Source: an uncultured Dorea sp. (GTDB lineage: Bacteria; Bacillota; Clostridia; Lachnospirales; Lachnospiraceae). From it: DNA of 57,929 nt. The notes beneath the pieces were generated by a model. The model saw only the letters and a program-made list of their open reading frames with translations. It made no database searches and had not been told where the DNA came from. Both the position numbers and the translations under genes were made by a program. Every line of letters starts with the position of its first letter. The stretch's first letter is position 1. Positions 80 through 30,744 of the stretch are shown in pieces. The stretch spans positions 1 to 57,929 of the forward strand of contig CAYOSJ010000001.1 in NCBI GenBank assembly GCA_964406595.1. The letters run 5' to 3'.

Positions 80-1066
80 ATGGAAAAAATCAAAATTGGT
101 ATCGTCGGATATGGTAACATTGGACGAGGCGTAGAGCGCGCGATTGCCCGTAATGAAGATATGGAATTAAAAGTGGTATTTACACGGAGAGAACCGTCTT
201 CTGTGAAGATTGAGACAGAAGGTGTAACAGTAAAACACGTTGACGATATGTTGTTGATGAAAGATGAGATTGACGTTATGATGCTTTGCGGAGGTTCTGC
301 AACGGATCTTCCGGTCATGGGACCTGAGATCGTGGCAAACTTCAATACGATTGATAGTTTTGATACGCATGCAAGAATTCCGGAATATTTCGAAAAAGTG
401 GACAAGGCAGCAAAAGCAGGCGGAAATATCGGAATTATTTCCGTAGGCTGGGATCCGGGAATGTTCTCCCTGAACCGCCTGTATGCAGAGGCGATCCTTC
501 CACAGGGAAGTACCTATACATTCTGGGGCAAAGGCGTCAGTCAGGGACATTCTGATGCGATCCGCCGCGTAGAAGGGGTAAAAAATGCGATCCAGTATAC
601 GGTTCCGATTGAAACAGCCGTTGAGCGTGTAAGAAGCGGCAGCGCACCGGAACTTACTACAAGAGAGAAGCACCTCCGCGAGTGTTATGTGGTGGCAGAA
701 GAAGGCGCAGATCTTGCAAAGATCGAAGAGACGATCAAGACAATGCCCAATTATTTCGATGAATATGACACGACGGTAACATTTATTACAGAAGAAGAAT
801 TAAAAAGAGATCATAGCGCGATGCCTCACGGCGGATTTGTCATCCGAAGCGGTGAGACAGGGCACGACGGGAATAAGCACATTATCGAATACTCATTGAA
901 ACTGGATTCCAATCCAGAGTTTACAGCTTGCGTACTTGTATGTTATGCAAGAGCGGCATACCGCCTTGCTAAGAAAGGAGAGAGCGGTGCAAGAAGCGTA
1001 TACGATATTGCGCCAGGACTTCTCTCTGTGAAGAGCGCAGAAGAACTCAGGGCACAGATATTATAA
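80..1066 (+). CDS. ddh: meso-diaminopimelate dehydrogenase
   Basis: 328 aa; N-terminal GYGNIG Rossmann motif, DSFDTH, GWDPG, WGKGVSQGHS and PHGG motifs; RBS GGAGG upstream. Confidence 0.93.
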   Translation: MEKIKIGIVGYGNIGRGVERAIARNEDMELKVVFTRREPSSVKIETEGVTVKHVDDMLLMKDEIDVMMLCGGSATDLPVMGPEIVANFNTIDSFDTHARIPEYFEKVDKAAKAGGNIGIISVGWDPGMFSLNRLYAEAILPQGSTYTFWGKGVSQGHSDAIRRVEGVKNAIQYTVPIETAVERVRSGSAPELTTREKHLRECYVVAEEGADLAKIEETIKTMPNYFDEYDTTVTFITEEELKRDHSAMPHGGFVIRSGETGHDGNKHIIEYSLKLDSNPEFTACVLVCYARAAYRLAKKGESGARSVYDIAPGLLSVKSAEELRAQIL

Positions 1067-1127
1067 TTTGGGACAGGGTATTTTTAATCTGGGACGGAGT
1101 AAATTTAAATTTACCCCGTCCCAGATT
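1065..1127. repeat. Palindromic intergenic repeat, copy 1 (three 21-bp units, last inverted)
   Basis: AATTTGGGACAGGGTATTTTT-AATCTGGGACGGAGTAAATTT-AAATTTACCCCGTCCCAGATT; overlaps the ddh stop and precedes the tatD RBS. Confidence 0.92.
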
Positions 1128-1139
1128 GAAGGAGAGACT

Positions 1140-1904
1140 ATGATATTTGATACACATGCACATTATGATGATGAACAATTTAATGAGGACCGCGAGAAAC
1201 TGCTTCTTTCTCTGCCCGGGCAGGGGGTTGGGACGATTGTTAATGTGAGCGCCCGCTATGATTCTTGTGAGAAGGTGGTTGCCATGGCACACAAGTATCC
1301 GTTCATGTATGCAGCGGTGGGGGTTCACCCGGATGAGGTGGGAGATCTGAACGAAGAAACATTTGCCCGCATGAAGGAACTTTTTAAGGACGATAAGGTT
1401 GTAGCGGTCGGGGAGATCGGGCTTGATTATCACTGGGACGTGGAGCCGCGTGAAGTACAAAAAGAATGGTTTATCCGTCAGCTTGACCTTGCAAGAGAAC
1501 TGGATCTTCCGGTTAATATCCACAGCCGGGATGCTTCTGAAGATACTTTTCAGGTGATGAAAGAGCACGGGCAGGGATTAAAAGGTATTATTCATTGTTT
1601 CTCCGGTTCAAAAGAACTGGCGGTAGAATATGTAAAACTTGGGTTCCTGATCGGCGTCGGCGGTGTAGTCACTTTTAAAAATGGGAAGAAATTAAAACAG
1701 GTAGTTGAAACAGTGCCTCTTGAGTCGATCGTGCTTGAGACGGACTGCCCGTACCTTGCGCCGGAGCCGTATCGTGGCAAACGGAATCATTCTGCATATA
1801 TCTGTTACGTGGCAGAGGAAATTGCAAGGATTAAAGGAATCACTCGTGAAGACGTGTTAAAACAAACGGAAGAGAATGCAAAGAAGGTATATGGGCTGAG
1901 TTGA
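1140..1904 (+). CDS. tatD: TatD family deoxyribonuclease, copy 1
   Basis: FDTHAH, GVHP, VGEIGLDY, HSRDA, IIHCFSG and LETDCPYLAP motifs; start moved to ATG 1140 after GAAGGAGAG (the ORF-track extension is the translated repeat). Confidence 0.93.
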   Translation: MIFDTHAHYDDEQFNEDREKLLLSLPGQGVGTIVNVSARYDSCEKVVAMAHKYPFMYAAVGVHPDEVGDLNEETFARMKELFKDDKVVAVGEIGLDYHWDVEPREVQKEWFIRQLDLARELDLPVNIHSRDASEDTFQVMKEHGQGLKGIIHCFSGSKELAVEYVKLGFLIGVGGVVTFKNGKKLKQVVETVPLESIVLETDCPYLAPEPYRGKRNHSAYICYVAEEIARIKGITREDVLKQTEENAKKVYGLS

Positions 1905-1927
1905 TTTTTAACATTTTGTTACAACTG

Positions 1928-1990
1928 AATTTGGGACAGGGTATTTTGAATCTGGGACGGGGTAAATTTAAATTTACCCCGTCCCAGATT
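1928..1990. repeat. Palindromic intergenic repeat, copy 2
   Basis: Same three-unit layout; 1949-1990 is a perfect 42-bp palindrome. Confidence 0.92.
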
Positions 1991-2002
1991 AAAGGAGAGG
2001 CT

Positions 2003-2767
2003 ATGATATTTGATACACATGTACATTATGATGATGAACAATTTAATGAGGACCGCGAGAAACTGATTCTTTCTCTGCCCGGGCAGGGGGTTGGGACGAT
2101 TGTTAATGTGAGCGCTCGCTATGATTCTTGTGAGAAGGTGGTTGCCATGGCACACAAGTATCCGTTCATGTATGCAGCGGTGGGGGTTCACCCGGATGAG
2201 GTGGGAGATCTGAACGAAGAAACATTTGCCCGCATGAAGGAACTTTTTAAGGACGATAAGGTTGTAGCGGTCGGGGAGATCGGGCTTGATTATCACTGGG
2301 ACGTGGAGCCGCGTGAAGTACAAAAAGAATGGTTTATCCGTCAGCTTGACCTTGCAAGAGAACTGGATCTTCCGGTTAATATCCACAGCCGGGATGCTTC
2401 TGAAGATACTTTTCAGGTGATGAAAGAGCACGGGCAGGGATTAAAAGGTATTATTCATTGTTTCTCCGGTTCAAAAGAACTGGCGGTAGAATATGTAAAA
2501 CTTGGGTTCCTGATCGGCGTCGGCGGTGTAGTCACTTTTAAAAATGGGAAGAAATTAAAACAGGTAGTTGAAACAGTGCCTCTTGAGTCGATCGTGCTTG
2601 AGACGGACTGCCCGTACCTTGCGCCGGAGCCGTATCGTGGCAAACGGAATCATTCTGCATATATCTGTTACGTGGCAGAGGAAATTGCAAGGATTAAAGG
2701 AATCACTCGTGAAGACGTGTTAAAACAAACGGAAGAGAATGCAAAGAAGGTATATGGGCTGAGTTGA
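2003..2767 (+). CDS. tatD: TatD family deoxyribonuclease, copy 2 (863-bp tandem duplicate)
   Basis: Protein identical to copy 1 except THAH>THVH and KLLL>KLIL; offset exactly 863 bp. Confidence 0.9.
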   Translation: MIFDTHVHYDDEQFNEDREKLILSLPGQGVGTIVNVSARYDSCEKVVAMAHKYPFMYAAVGVHPDEVGDLNEETFARMKELFKDDKVVAVGEIGLDYHWDVEPREVQKEWFIRQLDLARELDLPVNIHSRDASEDTFQVMKEHGQGLKGIIHCFSGSKELAVEYVKLGFLIGVGGVVTFKNGKKLKQVVETVPLESIVLETDCPYLAPEPYRGKRNHSAYICYVAEEIARIKGITREDVLKQTEENAKKVYGLS

Positions 2768-2790
2768 TTTTTAACATTTTGTTACAACTG

Positions 2791-2853
2791 AATTTGGGAC
2801 AGGGTATTTTGAATCTGGGACGGGGTAAATTTAAATTTACCCCGTCCCAGATT
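2791..2853. repeat. Palindromic intergenic repeat, copy 3
   Basis: Identical to copy 2, 863 bp downstream. Confidence 0.92.
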
Positions 2854-2971
2854 CAGATTTAAAAATTCATATATTCTTAATATGATTTTGGACGATGTTA
2901 TTGTATAATGTAGTACAAGGGTCAGGAGATGCATTCCCCCAAATAGTATATAAATTGGAGATTAGATATAG

Positions 2972-3847
2972 ATGAGGAAACCTACGCTGGGAAATCCGCA
3001 GAATACGATAGAAGTCTTGCAGAAGTATCAATTTACGTTTCAGAAAAAGTTCGGGCAGAATTTCTTGATTGATTCTCATGTTCTGGACAAGATCATACGG
3101 GCGGCAGAGATTACGAAGGATGACATGGTGCTGGAGATCGGACCGGGGATTGGGACGATGACGCAATATCTGGCGGAAGCTGCGAGAAAGGTCGTTGCCG
3201 TAGAGATCGACAGGAATTTGATACCGATTTTATCGGATACGCTTGACGGATATGAAAATGTAGAGATTCTGAATGAAGATATTCTGAAAGTGGATATTGA
3301 GAAACTGGTGAGAGAAGAAAATAATGGGAAACCGATTAAGGTCGTGGCGAATCTTCCGTACTATATTACGACGCCGATCATCATGGGGCTGTTTGAATCG
3401 CATGTGCCGGTAGAGAGTATCACGGTCATGGTACAGAAGGAAGTGGCGGAACGTATGCAGACGGGACCGGGAAATAAGGATTACGGAGCGTTATCGCTGG
3501 CAGTTCAATATTATGCCGAACCGTACATTGTGGCAAATGTCCCGCCGAACTGTTTTATGCCAAGGCCGAAGGTTGGTTCTGCAGTGATCCGGCTGACGAG
3601 GCATGCAGCGCCTCCGGTAGAGGTTCAAAATGAGCGATTGCTGTTTGATATCATAAGAGCGTCTTTTAACCAGCGCAGAAAGACACTGGTAAATGGACTG
3701 AATAATTCTGATAAATTAGACATTCCCAAGGAAGTCATCATAGAGGCGATCGAGCAGTTAGGCAAAGGTGTGGGAGTGCGGGGCGAATCCCTGACACTGG
3801 AAGAATTTGGGGAACTGAGTAATTATATAGAAGAAAGACGAAAATAA
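2972..3847 (+). CDS. rsmA: 16S rRNA (adenine-N6,N6)-dimethyltransferase
   Basis: KKFGQNFL, LEIGPGIG, VANLPYYITT and F.PRPKVGS motifs; tatD-rsmA synteny typical of Firmicutes. Confidence 0.95.
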   Translation: MRKPTLGNPQNTIEVLQKYQFTFQKKFGQNFLIDSHVLDKIIRAAEITKDDMVLEIGPGIGTMTQYLAEAARKVVAVEIDRNLIPILSDTLDGYENVEILNEDILKVDIEKLVREENNGKPIKVVANLPYYITTPIIMGLFESHVPVESITVMVQKEVAERMQTGPGNKDYGALSLAVQYYAEPYIVANVPPNCFMPRPKVGSAVIRLTRHAAPPVEVQNERLLFDIIRASFNQRRKTLVNGLNNSDKLDIPKEVIIEAIEQLGKGVGVRGESLTLEEFGELSNYIEERRK

Positions 3848-3883
3848 TCGGGCAATTAAGAAGGGGTAGAAAGGGTGATGATT

Positions 3884-5263
3884 ATGTCAAATAATTCAAG
3901 AGATGTAGGACATGTGTTATTCGAGGTGACGCCGGCGGTGCAGAGACTGGCGGACTTGTGTGAGAAGAATAATGCGATTGATAAGGAACTGTATGCAAAG
4001 TATGAAGTGAAGAGAGGGCTGCGAGACCTGAATGGAAAAGGTGTGCTTGCGGGTCTGACGAATATATCTGATGTATGTGCGAAAAAGGTTGTGGACGGTG
4101 TGGAAGTACCTTGTGAAGGCAATCTTTATTATCGCGGTTACAACATCAAGGATCTCGTAGATGGATTCTTAAAGGATAAACAGTTTGGGTTTGAGGAAAT
4201 TGCATATCTATTGTTATTTGGAGAACTGCCGAATCAGCAGGAACTGGAAGAATTCCACGGAGTGCTTGTGAGGAGGAGTACGCTGCCGCCGACATTTGTA
4301 AGAGATGTTATTATGAAAGCGACAAGTTCTGATATGATGAATAATCTGTCGCGTTCTATCTTAAGTTTATATACATACGATGACAAAGCAGATGATACGT
4401 CTATTCCGAATGTATTGAGACAGTGTCTGAACCTGATCAGCCAATTTCCGATGATGATGGTGTACAGTTATCATGCTTATAATTATCGCCAGGGGCAAGA
4501 TCTCTTTATCTACGCACCGTCACCGGAGTTGTCTGTAGCGGAGAATATATTGATGATGTTACGGGAGGATCGTAAATATACGAAACTGGAGGCAAGGATC
4601 CTTGACATGGCGCTGGTGCTTCACATGGATCATGGCGGTGGTAATAATTCTACATTTACGACACACGTAGTCACTTCTTCGGGGACGGACACATACTCGA
4701 CGATCGCAGCGGCGATGGCATCTCTTAAGGGACCAAAGCATGGCGGTGCAAACATCAAGGTAACGCAGATGTTTGAAGACATGAAAAAAGTTGTATCTGA
4801 CTGGGAAGATGAGGAAGAAGTAAGGGCATACTTGAATGCGCTTCTTGAGAAGGAAGCATTTGACAGGAAAGGTCTTATCTATGGTATGGGGCATGCCATT
4901 TATTCCATATCAGATCCGAGAGCGGATATATTCAAGAAATTTGTAAAACGTCTCGCAAAAGAGAAGGGGTGCGAAAAGGAGTATGCGCTTTACGCCATGG
5001 TGGAGAAGATGGCGCCGGAGGTTATCGCCGAAAAACGAAAGATCTACAAAGGTGTCAATGCAAATGTAGACTTTTACAGTGGGCTTGTGTACAGTATGCT
5101 GGATCTTCCGCCGTCACTGTATACGCCTATCTTCGCAACCGCGCGTATCGTAGGCTGGAGCGCACATCGTCTGGAAGAACTTAAGAATGTGGATAAGATC
5201 ATCCGTCCGGCATACAAACCGTTGGCGCCATATAAAAAGTATATACCGATGAATGAGCGTTAA
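3884..5263 (+). CDS. Citrate synthase family protein
   Basis: LYYRGY, HMDHG..NNSTF, GPKHGGAN, GMGHAIY..DPR and NVDFYSG motifs; start uncertain (3875-3884). Confidence 0.88.
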   Translation: MSNNSRDVGHVLFEVTPAVQRLADLCEKNNAIDKELYAKYEVKRGLRDLNGKGVLAGLTNISDVCAKKVVDGVEVPCEGNLYYRGYNIKDLVDGFLKDKQFGFEEIAYLLLFGELPNQQELEEFHGVLVRRSTLPPTFVRDVIMKATSSDMMNNLSRSILSLYTYDDKADDTSIPNVLRQCLNLISQFPMMMVYSYHAYNYRQGQDLFIYAPSPELSVAENILMMLREDRKYTKLEARILDMALVLHMDHGGGNNSTFTTHVVTSSGTDTYSTIAAAMASLKGPKHGGANIKVTQMFEDMKKVVSDWEDEEEVRAYLNALLEKEAFDRKGLIYGMGHAIYSISDPRADIFKKFVKRLAKEKGCEKEYALYAMVEKMAPEVIAEKRKIYKGVNANVDFYSGLVYSMLDLPPSLYTPIFATARIVGWSAHRLEELKNVDKIIRPAYKPLAPYKKYIPMNER

Positions 5264-5294
5264 AAGAAACGATTTAGTGGGAGGAATATCAGTT

Positions 5295-6227
5295 ATGAAG
5301 AGAGAATTTGGGTATCTGTCTATGGATGGAGTGACTGAGATTCATGCAGTCGAGTGGATCCCGGAAGGAGACGTAAAGGCGGTTCTTCAGATATGCCATG
5401 GCATGTCTGAGCATATCGGGCGTTATGATGAATTTGCAGAATATTTAAATGAGAGAGGTATCTGTGTCTTCGGACACGATCATCTGGGACATGGAAGATC
5501 CGTGCAGGGTGATGAGTTCTATGGATATTTCCACGCCGAGAAGGGAAATGAATATGTGATCGGAGATATTCATACGCTTCGCGGGATCATGAAGGAGAAG
5601 TATCCCGATGTGCCATATTTCATGCTGGGACACAGTATGGGTTCGTTCCTGCTGCGGCAATATCTGACAATGTACGGGGAAGGTCTTCACGGGGCAGTGA
5701 TCATGGGGACTGGTCATCATGGACCGCTTCTTCTGAATTTCGGACAACTGCTGTGCAAAGCATTTGCTCTTGTAAAGGGCTGGAAATATAGAAGCCGGCT
5801 GATCCATAACTTAAGTTTTGGCGGATTCAACAAGAAGTTCAAAGATGATAAAACAGGAGCTAACTGGCTGTCTACAAATGTGGAAAATTGCGTGCGTTAT
5901 GCAGAAGATCCGCAATGTGATTTTGTGTTTACGGTCAATGGCTATTATCAGATGTTTGAGGGAATGAAAGTGCTTACGGACAGGGAAAGTGTCGGTAAAA
6001 TTCCTCAAGATCTTCCGATATTTTTTGTGGCGGGCTCTGATGACCCGGTAGGAAATTTTGGCAAAGCTGTATATAAGATTTATAAGAAATATAAGAAAGC
6101 CGGGATCAAAGACGTGCAGTTGAAATTATATAAGGGCGACCGGCACGAGATTTTAAATGAACTGGACCGTGAGCAGGTCTACGAGGATATCTATGTGTGG
6201 CTGTCTCACAGGTGTCCTGTTTGTTAA
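5295..6227 (+). CDS. Alpha/beta hydrolase (lysophospholipase-like)
   Basis: HGMSEH, DHLGHG, GHSMG nucleophile elbow and HEILNE motifs; RBS GGGAGG. Confidence 0.88.
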   Translation: MKREFGYLSMDGVTEIHAVEWIPEGDVKAVLQICHGMSEHIGRYDEFAEYLNERGICVFGHDHLGHGRSVQGDEFYGYFHAEKGNEYVIGDIHTLRGIMKEKYPDVPYFMLGHSMGSFLLRQYLTMYGEGLHGAVIMGTGHHGPLLLNFGQLLCKAFALVKGWKYRSRLIHNLSFGGFNKKFKDDKTGANWLSTNVENCVRYAEDPQCDFVFTVNGYYQMFEGMKVLTDRESVGKIPQDLPIFFVAGSDDPVGNFGKAVYKIYKKYKKAGIKDVQLKLYKGDRHEILNELDREQVYEDIYVWLSHRCPVC

Positions 6228-6979
6228 GGGATGATCTCGACAAATGTTTTATAAAAATCATAAAGTTTCCCATCTTCCTGAGCGCATAGCAAGAAACGGC
6301 TGATAATATAGCCGGTGCGGTATGTCTTTTGGAGATGGGCTAAAAGTTCGTGCAGGTTATTAGGAAATCCTTCGGTAACCTCTTCTTTCATCAGACAGGC
6401 AATATAGGTATGGTTATTTTTTTCCCAAAGTATTTCTGACTTTGGGAAAAGTGATAACTGTTCTGTCGGGACCGTCAGTCCGCGGCGCTCCGTCCGGATG
6501 TTTTCCGAGTGTTGTACACGAGAATATAAGTAAGGATCTTCCATGTATTGTCGGAGTTTTTCGATTTCAATCAGATCGAAAGATACGATATAGTCTGTAT
6601 CAATATCCGTTTTTGTAAATGGGTGCAGCCTTAATTCCTCCAAAGTGTGGATGGCGTCAAGTCTGGAGTGTAGTTTTTCAATGCGACGTTGTATTTGTTG
6701 TTGCTGATTTTTTAATTCTTTAATTTTTGCTTCAAATAAAGATTCGTGCTCTTCCGGCGTGGAATGTTCCATTGTCGGTATCTTCTTCAGGGGAATCCCA
6801 AGATTTTTGTAAAAGATAATATCTGAGAGTTTCATCAAGTCTGCCACTGTGTATTCGCGATAGTTGTTCTCGGCATTTTTGCAGGAAACTACGATCCCGG
6901 CGTCTTCCCAGTAACGTAATGTAGAAGCAGGAAGATCAAAAAAATGTGAGATTTCTCCAATATGAAATCGTTTATCCAT
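6224..6979 (-). CDS. MerR family transcriptional regulator
   Basis: IGEISHFFDLPASTLRYWE...NNYREY MerR HTH followed by a coiled coil; divergent from the MATE gene. Confidence 0.88.
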   Translation of the reverse strand: MDKRFHIGEISHFFDLPASTLRYWEDAGIVVSCKNAENNYREYTVADLMKLSDIIFYKNLGIPLKKIPTMEHSTPEEHESLFEAKIKELKNQQQQIQRRIEKLHSRLDAIHTLEELRLHPFTKTDIDTDYIVSFDLIEIEKLRQYMEDPYLYSRVQHSENIRTERRGLTVPTEQLSLFPKSEILWEKNNHTYIACLMKEEVTEGFPNNLHELLAHLQKTYRTGYIISRFLLCAQEDGKLYDFYKTFVEIIP

Positions 6980-7025
6980 TACCATCACCCCTAAGGAATT
7001 TTGTTTGATTATATCAGATTTTGTA

Positions 7026-7056
7026 TTGACCTTCAAGTAACTTTAAGGTTTAAAAT
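7026..7056 (+). promoter_or_regulatory. MerR-type promoter with 19-bp spacer and dyad operator
   Basis: TTGACC-19 bp-TAAAAT with dyad ACCTTCAAGT-A-ACTTTAAGGT (7029-7049) across the spacer, the hallmark of MerR-activated promoters. Confidence 0.82.
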
Positions 7057-7074
7057 GAGTACGGAGGGATAGAT

Positions 7075-8424
7075 ATGGAAAAATTATTGATCTTTGATTC
7101 TGCAGAGGAAGTACGGTTTGGAAAAGTATTGAAGTTTATCATTCCAACGTACCTGACTTCTTTGTTTAATACGGTTTATACGATCATAGACGGGATTTTT
7201 GTATCTTTATATGTAGGAACAAATGCATTGGCTGCCATCAATATTGTATATCCGATCGTAAATGTGCTGACAGGGATCGCATTGGCATTTGCAACAGGAG
7301 GGAGCGCCATTGCCGCGCTTCAGATCGGAGGCGGGAAGAGACGGGAAGCGGACAGGACATTTTCGGTGTGTATGATCGCCGCGATCTTACTTGGCTGCAT
7401 GGTCTCGGTGTTTGTATGGCTGAGATTGCCTGCCATACTGACCGTATTAGGAGCAACCAGATTAACGATAGCAGATTGTAAAGTGTATGCGTTCTGGTGG
7501 CTGATCGGTACGCCTGTTGTTATCGGAAAGGAACTTCTTACGTATTTTATCCGCGTGGACGGTTCGCCGACATATAGTTTTTTCATGGCACTTTCCGGGG
7601 GAATCTTGAATATTGTCCTGGATTATATTCTTGTAGGGTGTATGGAAATGGGAATATTGGGGGCGGCGCTGGCTACGGTTCTGGGATTACTCCTCGCATT
7701 TGCTATGGGAATCTATTATTTGATAAAACGGAAAAATACACTTCATTTTACAGGGCAGCAGTTATCAATAAAGACAGGATTTCGTTGCGTAGTGAATGGG
7801 ACGTCCGAGTTTGTCAACCAACTGGCGATCGCGATCACGACGATCGTTTTTAACCGGACGGTCATGGCGTATGCAGGAGAAGATGGGATTGCCGCAGTCT
7901 CGATCATCATGTATCTGCAGTTTCTGTTTATCGGAATCTACTTTGGCTGTTCTATGGGGATCGCACCGCCTCTTAGTTACGCTTATGGAAATAAGAAGTT
8001 TGACGTCTGCGGCGTCCTTGAGCGATATGCGCGCCGGTTTTTCTGTATCGCGCCGGTTGTGATCTATGCATTCACTTTTCTGCTTGCGCCTGCAGGAGTC
8101 TCCCTTTTTGCTCCCAAAAGCAGCAGCGTGTATGCCCTGGCGGTGTCAGGTATGCGGATATATGGACTGGGCTTTTTGTTTTCCGGGATAAATATATTTG
8201 CCGCGATCCGTATGATGGCTTATGGAAAAGGAGAAATATCGGGAATGATCACATTTCTGCGTTCATTCGCACTGTTGTTGCTGTTCCTGATCGTACTGCC
8301 CGGGTTTTTGGGGATTCATGGGATCTGGCTTGCGGTACCGATGGCAGAAAGTCTGACGTTGATTCTGGCAGTTGTGACATTGCTATCTGTTCCGCGCAGT
8401 ATGAGAACGGAAAAAATCCGCTAA
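7075..8424 (+). CDS. MATE family efflux transporter
   Basis: 449 aa, ~12 hydrophobic segments, YTIIDGIFV and NIVLDY..V...MGILGAALAT motifs. Confidence 0.9.
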   Translation: MEKLLIFDSAEEVRFGKVLKFIIPTYLTSLFNTVYTIIDGIFVSLYVGTNALAAINIVYPIVNVLTGIALAFATGGSAIAALQIGGGKRREADRTFSVCMIAAILLGCMVSVFVWLRLPAILTVLGATRLTIADCKVYAFWWLIGTPVVIGKELLTYFIRVDGSPTYSFFMALSGGILNIVLDYILVGCMEMGILGAALATVLGLLLAFAMGIYYLIKRKNTLHFTGQQLSIKTGFRCVVNGTSEFVNQLAIAITTIVFNRTVMAYAGEDGIAAVSIIMYLQFLFIGIYFGCSMGIAPPLSYAYGNKKFDVCGVLERYARRFFCIAPVVIYAFTFLLAPAGVSLFAPKSSSVYALAVSGMRIYGLGFLFSGINIFAAIRMMAYGKGEISGMITFLRSFALLLLFLIVLPGFLGIHGIWLAVPMAESLTLILAVVTLLSVPRSMRTEKIR

Positions 8425-8446
8425 CCTTTTGGCTAACGGATTTTTC
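8410..8446 (-). terminator. Intrinsic terminator, better formed on the minus strand
   Basis: Minus strand AATCCGTTAGCC-AAAA-GGTTAGCGGATTTTTT pairs fully using two G-U pairs; the plus strand has two A-C mismatches. Confidence 0.75.
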
Positions 8447-8532
8447 TTTTTATAGTTATCTAAAGGAATGAGAGTAAAGTGTTTTTACACTTTTATGAGG
8501 GGGAGATAGTTGATATCCTGTTCAACTATCTG
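8410..8532 (-). ncRNA. Candidate small RNA (~120 nt)
   Basis: -10-like TATACT just upstream; 10-bp hairpin AGATAGTTGA/TCAACTATCT, unpaired CCCCCTC, hairpin AAAGTGT/ACACTTT, ACTCTCATTCCTTT, then a minus-strand terminator. Confidence 0.45.
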
Positions 8533-8608
8533 AGTATAAGTATAAAAGATAAATATGTCTAAAATATGTTAATTCTATAAAAGAAAAAGAAAAAATCTTA
8601 AGAAATGC

Positions 8609-8959
8609 TTAAAGGACAACTTTAAGTTGCCTCTGTCTGTTTAAATGTCCAACTAAAATATCGAAAAATTCACCAGAAGTAGGTCTGTCCTGAAGTGGGT
8701 GGAGCGCAATCTCCTGCAAGAAGGCTTTGTTGCCGCGTTCCCAGCAGACTTTAACCACGGTACGAAGATCTCGTTCAACGCTGCTGCTGGTTGCCTGAAA
8801 CTCTTTGGCGATCTCAGGATAGAGTAGTTTGCTGATAGACAGAAGATAGTCTTCGTTGTAGGAACACAGTTTTACTCCATAACTTAGATAACGGTAGCCG
8901 CGATAGTTGGCGCCGATTCCCAAAGAGCGAATGAGACATTCGATATCAAAATCGTACAT
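8609..8959 (-). CDS. Stand-alone Spo0A C-terminal (DNA-binding) domain protein
   Basis: LGIGANYRGYRYL, KLLYPEIAKEF.ATSSSVERDLR and RPTSGEF match the Spo0A effector domain; no receiver domain; RBS AAGGAG. Confidence 0.85.
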   Translation of the reverse strand: MYDFDIECLIRSLGIGANYRGYRYLSYGVKLCSYNEDYLLSISKLLYPEIAKEFQATSSSVERDLRTVVKVCWERGNKAFLQEIALHPLQDRPTSGEFFDILVGHLNRQRQLKVVL

Positions 8960-9199
8960 ATAGTATATTCTCCTTTGTAACAATACCAGATAAGGAAAGT
9001 AAGCCTTTTTTCATTATAATAAAAAAATGAAAAAAAGCATTAAAGAGCGGAAAAATAAGACTCAATTCGACATATTATGGCATTTCATAAAATGGAAACA
9101 AAAGGGGGCAAATATATATTCATAATATCTTAAGAATTTTCAGCAAAGAGTCTTAAAAATTTTCTGATATTTTTGTATTATATAAAGGAGGTGATCGAA

Positions 9200-9895
9200 A
9201 TGGAAAAAATATTAGTATGTGATGATGATAAAGAAATCGTAGAAGCGATAGAGATATATCTGGTGCAGGAAGGATATGAAGTGCTGAAGGCTTATGACGG
9301 CGAGGAAGCGCTTCAGGTATTGAAGACCTGCCAGCCGGATCTTCTGATCATTGATGTGATGATGCCGAAACTTGACGGGATCCGTGCGACGCTCAAGATC
9401 CGCGAAGTGAACAATATGCCGATCATCATCCTGTCAGCAAAATCCGAGGATGCAGATAAGATACTGGGATTAAATGTAGGGGCAGATGATTATCTGACGA
9501 AGCCATTTAACCCGTTGGAACTTGTGGCAAGAGTAAAATCTCAGCTGCGCCGTTATACCAAACTTGGAAGCACGGTGAATATGGAGAAAAAGAATGTATA
9601 TTCTACGGGCGGATTATCGATCGACGATGATCTGAAAGAAGTTACGGTAGATGGAGATACGGTGAAGCTTACACCGATTGAATATAATATATTGTTATTG
9701 CTTGTAAAAAATCAGGGGAAAGTATTTTCTATTGATCAGATATATGAAAATATCTGGAAGGAAGATGCTATCGGAGTGGATAATACGGTAGCGGTACATA
9801 TCAGACATATCCGGGAGAAGATCGAGATCAATCCAAAAGATCCTCGTTATCTTAAAGTTGTCTGGGGAGTCGGGTATAAGATAGAAAAACTTTAG
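9200..9895 (+). CDS. OmpR family response regulator
   Basis: ILVCDDD, IDVMMP, GADDYLTKPF, and wHTH ending VWGVGYK. Confidence 0.93.
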   Translation: MEKILVCDDDKEIVEAIEIYLVQEGYEVLKAYDGEEALQVLKTCQPDLLIIDVMMPKLDGIRATLKIREVNNMPIIILSAKSEDADKILGLNVGADDYLTKPFNPLELVARVKSQLRRYTKLGSTVNMEKKNVYSTGGLSIDDDLKEVTVDGDTVKLTPIEYNILLLLVKNQGKVFSIDQIYENIWKEDAIGVDNTVAVHIRHIREKIEINPKDPRYLKVVWGVGYKIEKL

Positions 9896-9907: not shown

Positions 9908-12532
9908 ATGAGATCAAAAAAGTACAGATCTGGTCTGGTGAAAGGGATTCTGACCATTCTGGCGCATGTGATGATCATCGTGACGGCATCCGTTATGATG
10001 TGGCTGGCGGCATATCCGACCGTTGCGCTGGAGGCATTTCGGTCAAAACCTGCGAAAGAGTATCAGGACACTGTGGGATTTGCAGAATTAATGAACAGCT
10101 ATAGTTATCATGCTGCAGAGAGAATCCGGGTAGAGCAGTTATTTGAACAAAATGGAGAAGTAGATGAGGATCAGCTGATTGATATAGAGGCATTTCATGA
10201 GAATGGAAGTTTGAAGCAGGAAGGAAATGCGTATCAGAAGTTATTAGATGAGCAGAAGATCAGTGGAGATTTTCAGTATCGCCTTGGAGATCTGCTGGAC
10301 TGGTATGATAAGATAGATGGAGGTGGAGGTGAAGATGACTATTACGATGAAAGGATCATCGTTTGCCAGAAGACGGACGGTTCTTACTATTATTATAAAT
10401 TGCCGGAGTTTTATGATCTCTTTGAAAAAGGCGATCTTCAGTTTATCTTTGCAGGTTCAGAGTATGGAGCGACGACAAAAGAACAGATCCTCTGGGAAAT
10501 AGAGCAAGGGTATGATGTCTCAGATGATACATTTCGCGGGATTCAGGACGCAGAAGGAAAAACAGCCTATGTGGACTGCTGGGTGTATACTGGAGACTGG
10601 ATAAAGGAGATGTATACGCCGGCGGGGAAGAGCAGTATTCTGGAGTTTGTAAATGAGGATGAAAAGTGGAATGGAAAACTGGAAGATATTTTCTCCATGC
10701 TAAAAAGTGCGATTTATACCATTGGAAGTGATTATGAGATCTATCAGGATGAAATGTATGAGCAGAAAGAGGGAGATACCAATTATGCTTACATTTACGT
10801 AGATGAGAAAAACAAGACGGTATACACGAACCGGGCAGAATATCAGGATTATCAAAATCTGGAGAAGAGTCTGGAAAGCCTGAAAAGCCTGGGAAAATAT
10901 GTGGTCATGAGACCGACACTCGAAGACTCCGAGAACAATATGGATATTGATATGGACAGGTGGGCTGTGGAGTTGAAAAGCAGCATACCGGACCGGGAAG
11001 AGTTTCTATTTGCAGCAGCGGTAGATACTACTTATCCGATCGAAGATCAGTTTTATGCGGAGAACAAGATATTTGAGGAATATGGTTTTAACGGAAGAGA
11101 ACTTCTGGCGCTGGCGATCGTGGCATTTTTCATTGCTGTGATCTGCACGGTATGGCTGGCGGTCGTGGCAGGAAGAAGTGAGAAAGACGAGGAGATCCAT
11201 CTTCTTTGGTTTGACAGATGGTATACAGAGATTGCAGCGGCTGTTATGATCGCTCTTGGGATCGTCGTGATCTGGTCTGGCGCTGCGGTATTCGTTGACG
11301 GTTCCAGTTTTATGGGAGTTGAAGTGTACAGAGTAGGCATGGCGCTGGCACGAGTTACCAATTATGTCAGGAACTCGATCGCCTATGTGGTAGGTTTTGC
11401 GGTCCTGGCGGTGATTCTATATGCACTTTTCCTGATCGGATTCTTAAGTCTGGTGAGAAGGATCAAAGCAAGGACGCTGTGGAAAGATAGTCTGCTTAGG
11501 AAAATCTGTCATTTTGTAAGACTGATGTACCATCATTTGAATAGCGTATGGAAGGTTGTCTTTTTATTCGCAGCATTCGTGTTTCTTGAACTTATAATGA
11601 TGGGCGCTTACAGCGTAGGCGATGCGGGGATATTTCTCCTGATTGCATTTGGAGGAGGGGGAGTATTATTTGTATGGTTTGTCTATCAGGCGATCGGCAG
11701 GAAGAAGATCAAAGATGGCATCCATAAGATTTACGAAGGTGAAGTGGATTATAAGATCTCCCTTGACGGACTTCGCGGAGAACAGCGGCAGATAGCAGAA
11801 GATATCAATAGCATTGGCGCAGGTTTGGATGCGGCGGTTGAAAAGAGTATGAAGAGCGAGCGCCTCAAGACAGATCTTATTACGAATGTTTCCCATGATA
11901 TCAAGACGCCCCTTACGTCTATTATCAACTACGTGGAACTACTGAGACAGGAGAACTTTGAGGATCCAAGGATCCGGCATTATATTGAAGTGCTGGAGCA
12001 GAAATCCCAGAGGCTTAAGACTCTGACAGAAGATATCGTGGAGGCTTCCAAGGTAAGTTCCGGGAACATCACATTAGAATATATGGATCTGGATCTGGTG
12101 GAGATGATACAGCAGACAAGCGGAGAATTCGAAGAAAAATTCGCAAAACGCGGGCTCAAAGAAGTGCTGACATTTCCAAAAGAAGAGGCGATCATCCGGG
12201 CAGACGGCAGACGTACATGGAGAATCCTCGAGAATATTTATAATAATGTAGCGAAATACGCAATGGAAGGAACCAGAGTGTACGGAGACCTTGCAGTAGA
12301 CGAGCAGACAGTGATGTTCAGCCTTAAGAATATATCCGAGCAGCCACTGAATATTTCGGCAGACGAACTTACAGAGAGATTTATCCGTGGCGACGTATCA
12401 CGAAGCACAGAAGGCAGCGGGCTTGGACTTTCCATCGCAAAGTCACTGGCGCAGATGCAGGGCGGCACCTTTGAATTGTATTTGGACGGAGATCTGTTCA
12501 GAGTAACGATAACCTTTCCAAGAGTCAGATAG
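9908..12532 (+). CDS. Membrane sensor histidine kinase
   Basis: N-terminal TM, large extracellular region, several further TMs, H-box NVSHDIKTPLT, N-box NNVAKY and G2 GSGLGL. Confidence 0.92.
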   Translation: MRSKKYRSGLVKGILTILAHVMIIVTASVMMWLAAYPTVALEAFRSKPAKEYQDTVGFAELMNSYSYHAAERIRVEQLFEQNGEVDEDQLIDIEAFHENGSLKQEGNAYQKLLDEQKISGDFQYRLGDLLDWYDKIDGGGGEDDYYDERIIVCQKTDGSYYYYKLPEFYDLFEKGDLQFIFAGSEYGATTKEQILWEIEQGYDVSDDTFRGIQDAEGKTAYVDCWVYTGDWIKEMYTPAGKSSILEFVNEDEKWNGKLEDIFSMLKSAIYTIGSDYEIYQDEMYEQKEGDTNYAYIYVDEKNKTVYTNRAEYQDYQNLEKSLESLKSLGKYVVMRPTLEDSENNMDIDMDRWAVELKSSIPDREEFLFAAAVDTTYPIEDQFYAENKIFEEYGFNGRELLALAIVAFFIAVICTVWLAVVAGRSEKDEEIHLLWFDRWYTEIAAAVMIALGIVVIWSGAAVFVDGSSFMGVEVYRVGMALARVTNYVRNSIAYVVGFAVLAVILYALFLIGFLSLVRRIKARTLWKDSLLRKICHFVRLMYHHLNSVWKVVFLFAAFVFLELIMMGAYSVGDAGIFLLIAFGGGGVLFVWFVYQAIGRKKIKDGIHKIYEGEVDYKISLDGLRGEQRQIAEDINSIGAGLDAAVEKSMKSERLKTDLITNVSHDIKTPLTSIINYVELLRQENFEDPRIRHYIEVLEQKSQRLKTLTEDIVEASKVSSGNITLEYMDLDLVEMIQQTSGEFEEKFAKRGLKEVLTFPKEEAIIRADGRRTWRILENIYNNVAKYAMEGTRVYGDLAVDEQTVMFSLKNISEQPLNISADELTERFIRGDVSRSTEGSGLGLSIAKSLAQMQGGTFELYLDGDLFRVTITFPRVR

Positions 12533-12589
12533 GGACAGGGTAATTTCAATCTGGGACGGGGTAATTTTAAAATTACCCCGTCCCAGATT
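12532..12589. repeat. Palindromic intergenic repeat, copy 4
   Basis: GGGACAGGGTAATTTC plus perfect 42-bp palindrome 12548-12589 (centre TAATTTT/AAAATTA); starts in the kinase stop codon. Confidence 0.92.
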
Positions 12590-17417: not shown

Positions 17418-17438
17418 AAATTTACCCTGTCCCGGATT
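17418..17438. repeat. Palindromic repeat, single inverted 21-bp unit (copy 5)
   Basis: AAATTTACCCTGTCCCGGATT followed by GCATTTTCCT, as at copy 4. Confidence 0.7.
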
Positions 17439-19894: not shown

Positions 19895-19895
19895 A

Positions 19896-19977
19896 GTTGG
19901 GGACGGGGTAAAATTAAATTTACTCCGTCCCAAATTGATTTATCCCTGTCCCAGATTGAAAATACCCTGTCCCAGAT
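19896..19977. repeat. Palindromic repeat, four-unit copy 6 (reverse orientation)
   Basis: GTTGGGGACGGGGTAAAATTAAATTTACTCCGTCCCAAATT followed by two CCCTGTCCCAGAT units; directly after the murA stop. Confidence 0.9.
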
Positions 19978-19996
19978 GGGGCATAAGGAGAAGGTA

Positions 19997-21297: not shown

Positions 21298-21396
21298 CTC
21301 TTATTCAGAGCAGTGGAGGTACAAAGGACCTGTGAAACTGCGGCAACCCCCGTGATGGGAAGGTGCCAACCTGAGCGAGCAATCGAACAATAAGAG
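21298..21396 (+). ncRNA. SAM-I (S-box) riboswitch aptamer
   Basis: P1 CUCUUAUU/AAUAAGAG, CAGAG, P2 with GUGGA/UGUGA kink-turn, GGCAACC...GGUGCC P3, GCAA-capped P4; upstream of metK. Confidence 0.9.
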
Positions 21397-21447: not shown

Positions 21448-21559
21448 ATGATATAGAAAACATCGGTTTCCCATATCAAAAAAATCCTTCGAATGTTACT
21501 CGCGCGAAAATGTAATATGTCGCAGGCGACCGCGCCCGGCGTGTTTACATAGGAAAATC

Positions 21560-21643
21560 AATTTGGGACAGGGGAAAGTTCAAAAAGGGACAGGGAGAAT
21601 TTAATCTGGGACGGAGTAAATTTAATTTAACCCCGTCCCCAAC
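21560..21643. repeat. Palindromic repeat, four-unit copy 7
   Basis: Two GGGACAGGG units then AATCTGGGACGGAGTAAATTTAATTTAACCCCGTCCCCAAC; mirror image of copy 6; just before the metK RBS. Confidence 0.9.
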
Positions 21644-21661
21644 CCACAAAGGAGGTAAAAA

Positions 21662-28730: not shown

Positions 28731-29665
28731 GAATATTGGGAACTATGTTGATACTTATATTATTGATCATCGGGATACTGCTTCTTATATCCTGTGTAAG
28801 AGTTGTAAGACAGGCACAGGCGCTGGTTGTAGAGAGGCTTGGCGCATATCAGGCGACATGGAGTACAGGGATCCATTTTAAGATCCCGATCATCGACCGT
28901 GTGGCAAGAAGGGTTGATCTGAAAGAGCAGGTTGTAGACTTTGCACCGCAGCCGGTTATCACAAAAGATAACGTTACGATGCGTATTGATACGGTTGTAT
29001 TTTACCAGATTACAGATCCGAAAATGTTCTGTTACGGTGTTGCCAATCCGATCATGGCGATTGAGAACCTGACAGCCACGACACTTCGTAATATTATCGG
29101 TGATCTGGAACTTGACCAGACACTGACGTCCAGAGAGACGATCAATACAAAGATGAGAGCGTCCCTTGACGTGGCGACAGACCCGTGGGGAATCAAGGTA
29201 AATCGTGTGGAACTTAAGAACATTATTCCTCCGGCGGCTATTCAGGATGCCATGGAGAAGCAGATGAAAGCAGAACGTGAGCGCCGGGAGTCCATTCTCC
29301 GTGCGGAAGGTGAGAAGAAATCTACGATCCTTGTAGCAGAAGGCAATAAGGAGTCTGCGATCCTTGATGCGGAAGCAGAAAAGCAGGCGGCGATCCTTCG
29401 TGCGGAGGCACAGAAGGAAGCCATGATCCGACAGGCAGAAGGTGAAGCAGAGGCAATCTTAAAAGTACAAAAGGCGAATGCAGACGGTATCCGTTTCCTG
29501 AAAGAAGCAGGGGCAGATGAGGCAGTTCTTACGATGAAGAGCCTTGAGGCATTTGAGAAAGCAGCAGATGGAAAAGCGACGAAGATCATTATCCCGTCCG
29601 AGATCCAGGGGATCGCAGGACTGGTAAAGAGCCTTGTGGAAATAGGAGAGAAGGATACGGAATAG
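28724..29665 (+). CDS. SPFH/stomatin-like (band 7) protein
   Basis: VVERLG, VITKDNV, TTLRNIIG, WGIKVNRVE and MEKQMKAERERR. Confidence 0.92.
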   Translation: MVGILGTMLILILLIIGILLLISCVRVVRQAQALVVERLGAYQATWSTGIHFKIPIIDRVARRVDLKEQVVDFAPQPVITKDNVTMRIDTVVFYQITDPKMFCYGVANPIMAIENLTATTLRNIIGDLELDQTLTSRETINTKMRASLDVATDPWGIKVNRVELKNIIPPAAIQDAMEKQMKAERERRESILRAEGEKKSTILVAEGNKESAILDAEAEKQAAILRAEAQKEAMIRQAEGEAEAILKVQKANADGIRFLKEAGADEAVLTMKSLEAFEKAADGKATKIIIPSEIQGIAGLVKSLVEIGEKDTE

Positions 29666-29702
29666 CCGACAGGTGAAAGGAATCACATTTGACAGATAGA
29701 GT

Positions 29703-30683
29703 ATGAAAACTGAGATTTTACGATTATTGAAAGAACGCGGAGATTATATTTCCGGGCAGCAGTTGTGCGAACGATTTCAGGTGTCTCGTACGGCGGTGTG
29801 GAAAGTGATCGAACAATTGAAAAAAGAAGGATATGCGATAGAGGCGGTACATGGGAAAGGGTACCGCCTTATAGAGAGCCCGGATATACTTTCCAGGGCA
29901 GAACTGGAAAGTATGATGAACACGGATTGGGCGGGAAAGCAAGTTGTTTATTATGACGAGACAGACTCTACCAATATTCAGGCGCGCCTTGCAGGAGAGA
30001 AGGACGGGGCACACGGGACACTTTTCGTGGCAGACAGGCAGATATCAGGGAAAGGCCGGCGCGGACGTTCCTGGGATTCGCCGACCGGTGTGTGCGTCTA
30101 TATGACATTGCTTCTGCGGCCGGAACTTGCACCTGTAAAAGCACCCATGCTCACGCTGGTGATGGCGCTGAGCGTGGCGGAGGCGGTGCGGGAGCAGACA
30201 GGGCTTGCCGCACAGATCAAGTGGCCGAATGATATTGTATTGAATCAGAAGAAAATATGTGGTATCCTCACGGAGATGAGCACCGAGATTGATTATATCA
30301 ATTATGTGGTGACCGGTGTGGGGATCAATACGAACCAGCCCGGATTCCCGGAAGAACTAGAAAAGACGGCAACATCACTTCTTATAGAAGGTGGAAAGAG
30401 GATCAGGCGTTCCAAACTGATCGCGGCAGTGATGCAGCGGTATGAAGAAAATTACAAGACATTTCTCGAGGCAGGAGATCTGTCAGGGATTCTTGACAGA
30501 TACAACGCATTGCTTGTAAACCGCGGGCGCGATGTGAGGATACTGGAACCACAGGGAGAATACAATGCGCGCGCATTCGGGATCAACAGGCAGGGCGAAT
30601 TGATCGTGATCACAGAAGACGGTGAAGAGAAGAAGATCTATGCAGGAGAGGTGTCCGTGCGCGGAATATACGGGTATGTGTAA
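29703..30683 (+). CDS. birA: Bifunctional biotin ligase / biotin operon repressor
   Basis: N-terminal HTH SRTAVWK, DSTN, GKGRRGRSW, KWPND and KICGILTE. Confidence 0.94.
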   Translation: MKTEILRLLKERGDYISGQQLCERFQVSRTAVWKVIEQLKKEGYAIEAVHGKGYRLIESPDILSRAELESMMNTDWAGKQVVYYDETDSTNIQARLAGEKDGAHGTLFVADRQISGKGRRGRSWDSPTGVCVYMTLLLRPELAPVKAPMLTLVMALSVAEAVREQTGLAAQIKWPNDIVLNQKKICGILTEMSTEIDYINYVVTGVGINTNQPGFPEELEKTATSLLIEGGKRIRRSKLIAAVMQRYEENYKTFLEAGDLSGILDRYNALLVNRGRDVRILEPQGEYNARAFGINRQGELIVITEDGEEKKIYAGEVSVRGIYGYV

Positions 30684-30744
30684 TTAGGGACAGGGTAAAT
30701 TCAATCTGGGACGGGGTAAAATTAATTTTACCCCGTCCCAGATT
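30683..30744. repeat. Palindromic intergenic repeat, copy 8
   Basis: ATTAGGGACAGGGTAAATTC plus perfect 42-bp palindrome 30703-30744 (centre TAAAATT/AATTTTA), between the birA stop and the next RBS. Confidence 0.92.

Follow-up and report, generated by a model that had tools for sequence, protein, structure and literature searches.

The clusters of 21-bp units found between genes in the DNA analysed here (the window, 57,929 nt from an uncultured Dorea sp., a gut member of the Lachnospiraceae) are likely non-autonomous copies of an element spread in trans by a single chromosome-fixed HUH/Y1 transposase of the TIRYT type, whose gene such clusters bracket. The repeat and the Y1 gene together form a well-supported new example of TIRYT/TIRtron, a known kind of system. 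The original prediction, made from the window alone, had proposed a REP/BIME-like non-autonomous repeat served by a HUH/Y1 enzyme of the RAYT type. The repeat-flanked gene, the co-occurrence of gene and repeat in the family and the filled and empty sites bear this out; the REP/RAYT analogy holds, the precise family being TIRYT/TIRtron and not the enterobacterial GTAG REP/BIME.

All eight intergenic copies reported earlier are present, and their exact bounds are given in Table 1. They comprise 24 units of 21 bp: GGGACRGGG occurs 21 times in the window, and three GGGACGGAG variants complete the set. Five clusters have the layout ++-, one is +---, one is +++- and one is a solo unit. Four of them start at or directly behind the stop codon of the upstream gene, as had been noticed. 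No copy had been seen after 31 kb, and the sole trace there is a half-site with six mismatches at 35522. The pattern suggested for counting, GGGAC[AG]GG[AG]GT, had to be corrected: it has 0 matches in the window, because the base that varies is the one at position 8 (GGGACRGRGT).

Table 1. Repeat clusters and associated features in the window.
Feature	Position	Strand	Remarks
Repeat cluster ++-	1065..1127		Outer GGGACAG unit plus 42-bp palindrome; ddh/tatD gap; overlaps ddh TAA (1064-1066)
863-bp tandem duplication of repeat and tatD	1065..2790	+	Ends fall in repeats; probably an assembly artefact
Repeat cluster ++-	1928..1990		Duplication junction; its left flank is that of the 2791 copy, its right flank that of the 1065 copy
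Repeat cluster ++-	2791..2853		tatD/ksgA gap; perfect 42-bp palindrome
Repeat cluster ++-	12527..12589		3' of histidine kinase gene (TAG, ending at 12532, within the unit); 5' of predicted promoter of a methyltransferase gene
Solo 21-bp unit, outer (GGGACAG) type	17418..17438	-	No hairpin formed
Repeat cluster +---	19895..19978		murA stop directly upstream (gene end 19894); MFS gene downstream
SAM-I riboswitch, metK leader	21298..21396	+	RF00162, 75.5 bits (Rfam scan)
Repeat cluster +++-	21560..21644		metK leader, between SAM-I riboswitch and metK RBS; just 5' of RBS
Repeat cluster ++-	30682..30744		birA/DUF6145 gene gap; birA TAA (ends 30683) overlaps the unit

The core of the element is a 42-bp palindrome made of two GGGACG-type units placed tail to tail with no spacer. 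One or two GGGACA-type units are usually added in direct repeat on one side of the palindrome. It had been supposed that one 21-bp unit builds all copies; the unit length is correct, and the units are not interchangeable. The inner palindrome units carry GGGACG in 154/154 cases (the search pattern did not impose that base) and the outermost extra units carry GGGACA in 70/74. The latter read GGGACAG in the same 70/74, the preceding base being G in 21/74 (full GGGGACAG) and mostly T or A otherwise. When folded as DNA, the hairpin at 2791 gives z = -9.7; the outer units do not pair, and the solo unit stays unfolded (z +0.9). The arms inside one copy resemble each other more than shuffled arms do (1431 vs 1384±8, 0/2000), and the same comparison per copy in the congeners gave 1441 vs 1371±19 (0/2000). 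Occupied sites bear species-typical variants.

The copies at 1928 and 2791 had been treated as independent and in fact share the 863-bp tandem duplication, which is probably a mis-assembly. Its halves (1065-1927 and 1928-2790) show seven differences, all within the first 189 nt. Sequencing runs X1 and X6 contain one tatD contig of 870-871 nt at single-copy depth (19.9 vs 21.6-23.1 in one run and 23 vs 27-28 in the other), so that the window probably holds seven sites. There is one tatD match per genome in 11/11 congeners. The false duplication was probably created by the repeats themselves; the practical point is that these repeats break assemblies.

The genome-wide count proposed earlier was carried out on the host assembly (G000, 227 contigs) and found 78 core 42-bp palindromes plus solo units, not only the copies in the window. 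The pattern matched 77 times vs 0 for the reversed pattern, which is not chance. The repeat is dispersed in G000 as singles, dimers and clusters, as in TIRtrons. It is present in 11/11 congeners with 1-314 copies each (60-314 in 10/11), and in the other sampled genera the result was 0/29. A scan of 400 genomes of the family gave 14 that match the repeat pattern. Among non-congeners with at least four copies, 10/11 carry a full-length relative of the Y1 protein at E<1e-70; it was found in 0/60 pattern-negative genomes (chosen at even steps) and in 0/2 single-copy genomes. Since the co-occurring genomes are kin, a single origin may lie behind the contrast of 10/11 with 0/60.

No cognate transposase had been found in the window; the candidate is encoded on another contig. 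G000 has exactly one Y1/HUH transposase gene, at C71:733-1512, between proS and cca. As anticipated, it is flanked by unit clusters in inverted orientation (+--- at C71:639 and +++- at C71:1494), and the repeats overlap its 3' end, as in TIRYT. The Y1 protein (259 aa) scores above the cut-off for PF01797 and reaches 83.8 (cut-off 80) with NF047646, the NCBIfam model of REP-associated tyrosine transposases; the IS200 model gives 21 (cut-off 55). The HuH and Y---NP motifs (H60, H62, Y119, N123 and P124) are invariant in 12/12 aligned proteins. The motif around the tyrosine is Y119-I-H-L-N-P, and in the same alignment Y136 and S139 are invariant and S140 nearly so, which constitutes a conserved-serine core extension. 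In a Foldseek search, the predicted model (pLDDT 86) matched E. coli TnpA-REP best (4ER8, E 2e-7), with 17% identity. The C-terminus is confidently predicted as a four-helix domain (pLDDT 89.5). Pfam HTH families gave no match to this C-terminus, and HTH matches were found in at most 2/12 aligned members per family. A Foldseek search with the C-terminal domain returned nothing at E≤0.001, and a PDB sequence search for its identity returned only 4ER8 (E 0.13).

The proS-cca position of the Y1 gene is shared by 9/11 congeners and 10 genomes from other genera (about 11 genera), and all 10 non-congener full-length relatives sit there. Clusters lie on both sides of the gene in every congener locus whose two flanks are covered and in 9/10 loci from other genera; for G402 those listed are outer units on a single side. 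The four groups starred in the host tree, which was built from neighbouring genes that are themselves linked to the transposase, recur in the Y1 tree, three of them starred and the congener clade with 94/95. The dN/dS is about 0.08-0.33 in 5/7 pairs (those with estimable dS). Judged from these sequences, the Y1 gene is under purifying selection and is inherited at the fixed proS-cca locus.

Comparison of orthologous intergenic regions, a check suggested with the original prediction, revealed gaps that are filled in one species and empty in another. The ddh-tatD gap is filled in six of the seven genomes (including G000) with ddh directly upstream and is empty in G005 (2-bp gap); this count omits G009 (ddh divergent from tatD), G003, G007 and G011 (another gene precedes tatD) and G002. 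The kinase-methyltransferase gap is filled in G006 and empty in G009 and G011. The repeat 3' of murA is found in G001, G005, G006 and G008 and is absent from G004, G009 and G010. Two sites are filled only in G000: the tatD-ksgA gap lacks the repeat in 9/9 congeners shown, and the metK leader between riboswitch and RBS lacks it in 8/8. Some sites are old, e.g., birA-DUF6145, which 10/12 genomes of the genus have filled, with a different sequence variant in each. No target-site duplication was detected at nine offsets (0-8); the AT shared at offset 2 belongs to the palindrome itself. Among the contigs listed from eight sequencing runs (window 1-19999 and C71), none crossed an empty site at strain level, a null result that is weak because contigs break at repeats.

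A second Y1 paralogue is found at a fixed kbl-aminopeptidase locus with its own repeat, which has a 33-bp core and a period of 22 bp where extra units occur. The top four 33-bp-core counts (76, 49, 44 and 39) are all from genomes with the paralogue or a fragment. G402 has 29 such cores and a paralogue fragment only; G139 (19), G236 (15) and G193 (12) have cores, and no paralogue was found in them. In G005, one orthologous site is occupied by the paralogue's repeat.

The repeats might instead derive from transposase ends and now be spread and kept uniform by ordinary recombination, gene conversion or another enzyme, with the Y1 protein retained for some other host function. Large repeat families exist despite a broken gene in G004 and G007 (85 and 78 copies) and a missing one in G139 (52 copies, no Y1 gene found in an assembly of 100 contigs). 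Half-sites assort combinatorially inside a genome, the contigs listed crossed no strain-level empty site, and Group 1 RAYTs have been called host-co-opted and not REPIN-linked (bioRxiv 10.1101/2021.07.10.451892, in the portion available). All four points fit this explanation, which we nevertheless consider unlikely. Conversion leaves the new sites in the tatD-ksgA gap and the metK leader unexplained. Each paralogue goes with its own period and motif: in G069 the motif in the paralogue's flanks is altered, so that motif and flanks change together, and G000, which has no paralogue at kbl-aminopeptidase, shows a degenerate hairpin at this locus and only two 33-bp cores.

The position of the elements relative to genes was analysed in G000 with crude ORF calls. 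Of 67 elements with an adjoining gene 3' end, 51 lie -6 to +11 nt from the stop, and near-stop placement was 43/53 vs 25.0 expected if randomly placed in the gap; G010 shows the same (12/15). Convergent gaps are enriched (24/68 elements vs 154/1123, p 1e-5) and divergent gaps are depleted (5/68 elements). The stem begins no more than 15 nt from the stop on 44/91 stop-facing sides, a spacing that, in PMC12306157, goes with ribosome stalling by E. coli REPs, and a terminator scan with loose settings picked up two of the window's hairpins. These features would be expected if the elements were mainly RNA signals (3'-end stabilisers, terminators or ribosome-stalling hairpins) kept and multiplied by mRNA selection, an explanation that is highly improbable. 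The variable stem position gives A-C 14 times vs G-U three times on the transcribed strand (p 0.013), and the A allele tracks the side bearing the extra units (36/75 vs 6/77), a polarity at the DNA level. TTTT within 10 nt past the stem was found in only 4/39, many copies lie within closely packed operon junctions where relatives have no repeat, and the outer units are unpaired. In the Rfam scan of the window the SAM riboswitch was the sole match, and the repeat matched no family. The mRNA-stabilising or processing hairpin put forward earlier is thus not favoured as the cause; any mRNA effects of the element would be secondary.

The strict 21-bp period, the invariant GGGAC core and the AT-rich spacers could also describe phased sites for a host regulator or nucleoid factor, with the transposase gene as one of several bearers. 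This is hardly credible given that the units are at 3' ends and scarce in divergent promoter gaps, that occupancy differs between congeners, that almost all genomes with the Y1 gene have it bracketed on at least one side, and that the 22-bp period goes with the second Y1 paralogue. The idea of phased putative binding sites, raised in the original prediction as an alternative, is probably right for the transposase itself only.

By analogy we infer that the repeats are mobilised by the Y1 protein. Like the enzymes of IS200/IS605 and E. coli TnpA-REP, it would bind the GGGAC-R-G boxes, and the 21-bp-spaced outer units may serve as extra docking sites, possibly via the helical C-terminal domain. 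It would then nick single-stranded or hairpin DNA with Tyr119 and the putative His60-Phe-His62 metal site and join the nicked element to new sites. The surviving copies would be mostly those right 3' of stop codons, probably because elsewhere genes, promoters or ribosome-binding sites would break; a target preference is a possible alternative. A bolder proposal, possible and on balance doubtful, is that a Group 1/TIRYT transposase uses a recognition code of its own to keep up 60-300 elements as a REPIN-like population. The inner GGGACG pair would be what the enzyme acts on, outer GGGACA units in helical phase would load it, the two paralogues would read the 21- and 22-bp versions separately, and insertion would be steered to gene 3' ends, rewriting stop codons and C-termini. 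The lineage offers an unusually clean test case: a single gene stays at the same locus over about 11 genera, the 21-bp unit is well defined, and orthologous sites are filled or empty; G004 and G007 are natural null alleles and the 22-bp-unit paralogue is a specificity control.

In the description of TIRYT/TIRtron, the gene of a tyrosine transposase has inverted repeats with GGGGWSAS on its flanks (PMC3733652, Di Nocera, De Gregorio & Rocco 2013). As in that description, so far as its main text goes, the Y1 gene lies between inverted repeats unrelated to GTAG REPs, and single, dimer and cluster copies are dispersed. GGGGWSAS is matched here by [TG]GGGAC[AG]G, and many outer units have GGGGACAG. 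In contrast to it, there are two unit classes, the inner units (GGGACGG) being off the consensus at position 7, and the locus is fixed over about 11 genera; the published families are moderately abundant, whereas 10/11 congeners have 60-314 copies. Firmicutes or Clostridia had 0 matches in the text of PMC3733652, the species figure and alignment supplement lying outside this comparison. Quentin et al. (2018, PMC6006769, passages compared) equate subclass 2.1 (TnpA-Y1) with TIRYT, rank it as the second-largest Y1 class (14.9% of strains) and report no REP-like sequences near its genes. RAYT Group 1, which corresponds to subclass 2.1, has been reported in Clostridia (PMC5581495, Bertels et al. 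2017, in part). The Y1 protein resembles subclass 2.1 and Group 1, as far as described there, in its length (259 aa), HuH and Y---NP motifs, conserved-serine extension and predicted extra C-terminal helical domain; it differs in the abundant genome-wide hairpin family, and its C-terminus gave no match to HTH families. According to the statements seen of Bertels & Rainey, only RAYT Groups 2 and 3 are tied to REPINs, and our finding goes against the statement, as worded there, that REPIN-like populations are kept by these groups only. TIRYT/subclass 2.1 is a large class, yet its role is not shown in the literature found. A literature search, which left most subscription papers and the TIRYT species listing uncovered, found no description of this repeat family.

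The system shares with REP/BIME/REPIN and RAYT Groups 2-3 a single-copy, vertically inherited Y1 gene under purifying selection, abundant repeats, and paired inverted units between genes that lie near or supply stop codons. The predicted fold is similar to 4ER8, and the dN/dS is within the range quoted for RAYTs. Unlike REP/REPIN, its conserved flank is AATCT and no GTAG guide tetranucleotide was seen where the stem begins, its 21-bp unit alone forms no hairpin, the palindrome consists of two abutting units and the extra units are direct; the AATCT flank and the unfolded solo unit speak against a GTAG REP/REPIN identity. MITEs of DDE transposases are likewise short, non-coding, dispersed elements with inverted ends; the present elements differ from them in the missing target-site duplication and in the linked enzyme, which is HUH/Y1. 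The CGTCCC on the reverse strand brought CGTC-tagged REPs into consideration, and these were rejected. In those REPs, as presented in the main text of PMC3733652, the tag is unpaired and there is no transposase, whereas CGTC is inside the stem here.

All eight repeat clusters of the original prediction were present in the window, in which GGGACRGGG occurs 21 times. Fuzzy matching to the 21-nt unit returned 24 good units in eight clusters, none after 30744, as had been claimed for the region beyond 31 kb. The pattern proposed for checking the repeat was slightly wrong and had zero matches in the window. Pfam upheld the gene assignments: ddh, tatD (twice), ksgA, metK, birA, DUF6145, MFS, murA (as a member of the EPSP-synthase family), and genes for a methyltransferase and a histidine kinase. 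The core of the element is a 42-bp palindrome in which two units directly abut through their AT-rich ends. Folded as DNA, the copy at 2791 gave -25.2 kcal/mol (z -9.7); DNA folding found no fold for the solo unit at 17418. The genome holding the window (G000) has 78 cores (77 with a stricter pattern, none with a reversed control pattern). Fifty-four cores carry one extra direct unit on one side, 10 carry none, seven carry two on one side, five carry one on each side and two carry one plus two. Position 6 is G in 154/154 inner units and A in 70/74 outermost extra units. The element is polar, since A at position 8 occurs in 36/75 arms directed towards the extra unit versus 6/77 free arms. Similarity between the arms within one copy exceeds that after shuffling, at 1431 versus 1384±8 in G000 and 1441 versus 1371±19 in a set of 103 copies from congeners, where arms were exchanged inside each species. 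Half-site alleles vary between species and combine freely inside a genome. Target duplication was sought at the element sites and none was found. The composite +-+- layout in the Table, in which a larger inverted repeat encloses two palindromes that are inner/outer hybrids, was not seen in G000. Two further inverted/tandem structures of G000 contain GGGGAC and are unlike the main family.

Table. Locations of the features described in the text.
Feature	Location	Remarks
Main Y1 gene	G000 C71:733-1512	259 aa; proS on one side, cca on the other
tatD tandem duplication	window 1065-1927 and 1928-2790	863 bp
SAM-I riboswitch	window 21298-21396	before metK
metK leader	window 21400-21560	lies between riboswitch and RBS
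Response regulator with variable gap behind it	window 25132	
kbl-aminopeptidase gap	G000 C55:14615-14769	degenerate hairpin
Degenerate half-site	window 35522-35542	GGGACGTAG; behind ORF ending 35502
Composite +-+- layout	L033:9590, L033:13426, L050:6551 (G011)	extracted loci
GGGGAC structures	G000 C27:19360-19480, C2:20330-20395	
Intergenic sequence, ~200 nt	window 8401-8605 and G000 C66:181-389	79% identity
Candidate leader	window 16663-16804	upstream of small reverse gene 16239-16727
ORF pair	window 43830-49099	two neighbouring 852-aa ORFs; DNA blocks 71-89% similar, 2.7 kb apart

On its left, the tatD duplication begins exactly with the repeat's first base. Its two copies differ at 7 positions, all within the first 189 nt. 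The flanks of the 1928 cluster match those of two different clusters, 2791 on the left and 1065 on the right. Sequencing runs X1 (possibly the source) and X6 each contain one tatD contig of 870-871 nt, as deep as its neighbours, and have almost zero cover on the second copy. Each of the 11 congeners has one tatD match. The duplication is likeliest a mis-assembly through the two repeats, and one of the eight clusters is probably not real. It may alternatively be a strain-specific unequal crossover. The second tatD copy would alter a residue beside the N-terminal His pair (A7V).

A cognate HUH/Y1 transposase had been predicted outside the window and was located on contig C71 as the sole Y1 match in G000. 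The gene is bracketed by mutually facing clusters, +--- upstream and +++- downstream, and its last codons (MGQGKL) are encoded by the repeat. The protein passes the NCBIfam cut-off for REP-associated tyrosine transposases and not that for IS200, and retains the catalytic motifs H60-F-H62 and Y119-x3-N-P. E. coli TnpA-REP (4ER8) is the best match for its structure model. A C-terminal helical domain is confidently predicted in the model; it matched none of the HTH families searched. Nine of 11 congeners have the gene with flanking clusters at proS-cca (two copies, in G004 and G007, are broken), and the genomes of the two without it are 57% and 65% complete.

The core pattern was found in 11/11 congeners (1-314 copies) versus 0/29 other sampled genera. 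In a 400-genome sample of the family 14 genomes matched. One is a congener; of the 13 non-congeners, 11 hold 4-80 copies and two hold a single copy. These 13 and 60 of the 386 negatives, taken at even steps, were searched with the Y1 protein. A full-length Y1 relative (47-56% identity, E<1e-70) is present in 10 of the 11 repeat-rich non-congeners, always at proS-cca; none at this E-value occurs in any of the 60 negatives or in either single-copy genome (best 2e-50, 36%). The co-occurrence of gene and repeat may represent one origin because the genomes with both are kin. The gene is vertically inherited: all four groups starred in the ProS+CCA tree reappear in the Y1 tree, three of them with a star again and the congener clade with support of 94/95. 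The broken or partial copies of G004, G007 and G009 were excluded. Mismatches concern the branching within G001/G006/G008 and a weakly supported conflict over G111. The protein is under selection, with dN/dS of 0.08-0.33 in five pairs (dS saturated in two). Titled records with relatives of the protein bear the labels Dorea, Claveliimonas, Faecalicatena, Mediterraneibacter and Lachnospiraceae, and most of the sequencing runs containing the window are metagenomes of rat gut, gut or faeces.

A second Y1 gene, 40% identical to the first at the protein level and forming a separate clade, occupies the kbl-aminopeptidase gap in G069, G203, G204 and G359, with a fragment in G005. This paralogue with its own repeat is a natural control. 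The core of the repeats beside the paralogue measures 33 bp, and where extra units were seen (G203, G005) the period is 22 bp. The highest 33-bp-core counts are in G203 (76), G359 (49), G005 (44) and G204 (39). G069 lacks the pattern, and its paralogue flanks bear a changed motif (AGGACG/GGTAC). G402 has 29 cores alongside a paralogue fragment alone, and no paralogue was found in G139 (19 cores), G236 (15) and G193 (12). The listed matches in G007 and G004 are first-family forms one base longer. G000 has no paralogue in this gap and two 33-bp cores genome-wide. The degenerate half-site in the window resembles the paralogue's repeat family. More distant Y1 genes (loci L115 of G128, L015, L016, L019, L021, L102, L104 and L105) carry other repeats of the GGGG(A/T)C type on their flanks, such as GGGGTCAGACCCC, GGGGACAGTTCC and 30-bp tandem units; each has a period of its own.

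Comparison of orthologous intergenic regions, a check suggested in the original prediction, showed both filled and empty sites between congeners. Only G000 has a repeat in the tatD-ksgA gap (empty in 9/9 congeners shown) and in the metK leader (empty in 8/8 shown). This leader is longer in G000 than in congeners and, in addition to the repeat, includes ~90 nt of unrelated sequence. The ddh-tatD site is filled in 6/7 genomes with the same gene order (G005 has a 2-bp gap), the kinase-methyltransferase gap in 2/4 and the birA-DUF6145 gap in 10/12, with species-specific variant and layout. The gap behind the response regulator has no repeat in G000 and G004. In seven congeners it holds a main-family repeat, and in G005 one of the paralogue's family. 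Sites are therefore gained, lost and refilled, and some are repeated targets. No strain-level empty site was seen among the contigs listed in eight sequencing runs.

Placement was scored with crude gene calls (longest ORFs of at least 90 aa), by which three elements fell within an ORF. Among 68 G000 elements with genes on both sides, 39 are co-directional, 24 convergent and 5 divergent; the background of 1123 gaps has 154 convergent and 191 divergent (convergent excess p 1e-5, divergent deficit p 0.04). A stop codon lies -6 to +11 nt away in 51/67 elements with an adjacent 3' end, and 43 of 53 testable elements are near a stop where random placement in the same gap predicts 25.0. The stop codon overlaps the unit's first bases on 18 sides, and on several more the gene enters the unit and stops inside. 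In G010 (89 elements), 12 of 15 examined abut a stop. This clustering is most simply survival bias; it may also come from insertion targeting. The mRNA-hairpin role raised in the original prediction is disfavoured as the cause of the element because A-C exceeds G-U (14 versus 3) at the variable stem position on the transcribed strand and a T-run stands behind just 4/39 stems. The element may still influence translation or mRNA decay secondarily, since the stem starts within 15 nt of the stop on 44/91 stop-facing sides, the 15-nt rule being that of PMC12306157.

By analogy with IS200/IS605 and TnpA-REP, as covered by Quentin et al. (2018, PMC6006769), the Y1 protein would recognise the repeat unit, its catalytic tyrosine would nick DNA there, and strand transfer would take place on single-stranded DNA. 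More speculatively, the outer units could be docking sites for the C-terminal helical domain. According to Di Nocera et al. (2013, PMC3733652), TIRYT genes are flanked by inverted repeats with GGGGWSAS, with copies as singles, dimers and clusters. Most TIRYT genes are placed in TnpA-Y1 subclass 2.1 by Quentin et al.; this corresponds to RAYT Group 1 of Bertels et al. (2017, PMC5581495), which is reported from Clostridia too. REPIN-RAYT systems are limited to Groups 2 and 3 according to Bertels and Rainey (bioRxiv 10.1101/2021.07.10.451892). The Dorea system has every TIRtron feature tested, and the idea of a transposase-linked REP-like repeat was right. The repeat lacks two REP features, a self-palindromic unit and the GTAG guide, and despite this the system behaves like REPIN-RAYT. 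It adds one case to a known kind of system that is experimentally untouched so far, and its value is testability.

Three other features of the window were recorded. The ~200-nt intergenic sequence, a terminator-like hairpin plus a conserved block, breaks contigs in the compared sequencing runs and had no match in an Rfam scan. The candidate leader is single copy in G000 and had no Rfam hit at gathering score. Several runs show it at high depth, with the loose ends of other contigs falling on it, which suggests a conserved non-coding leader common to other gut bacteria. The ORF pair is probably a duplicated hybrid sensor kinase pair.
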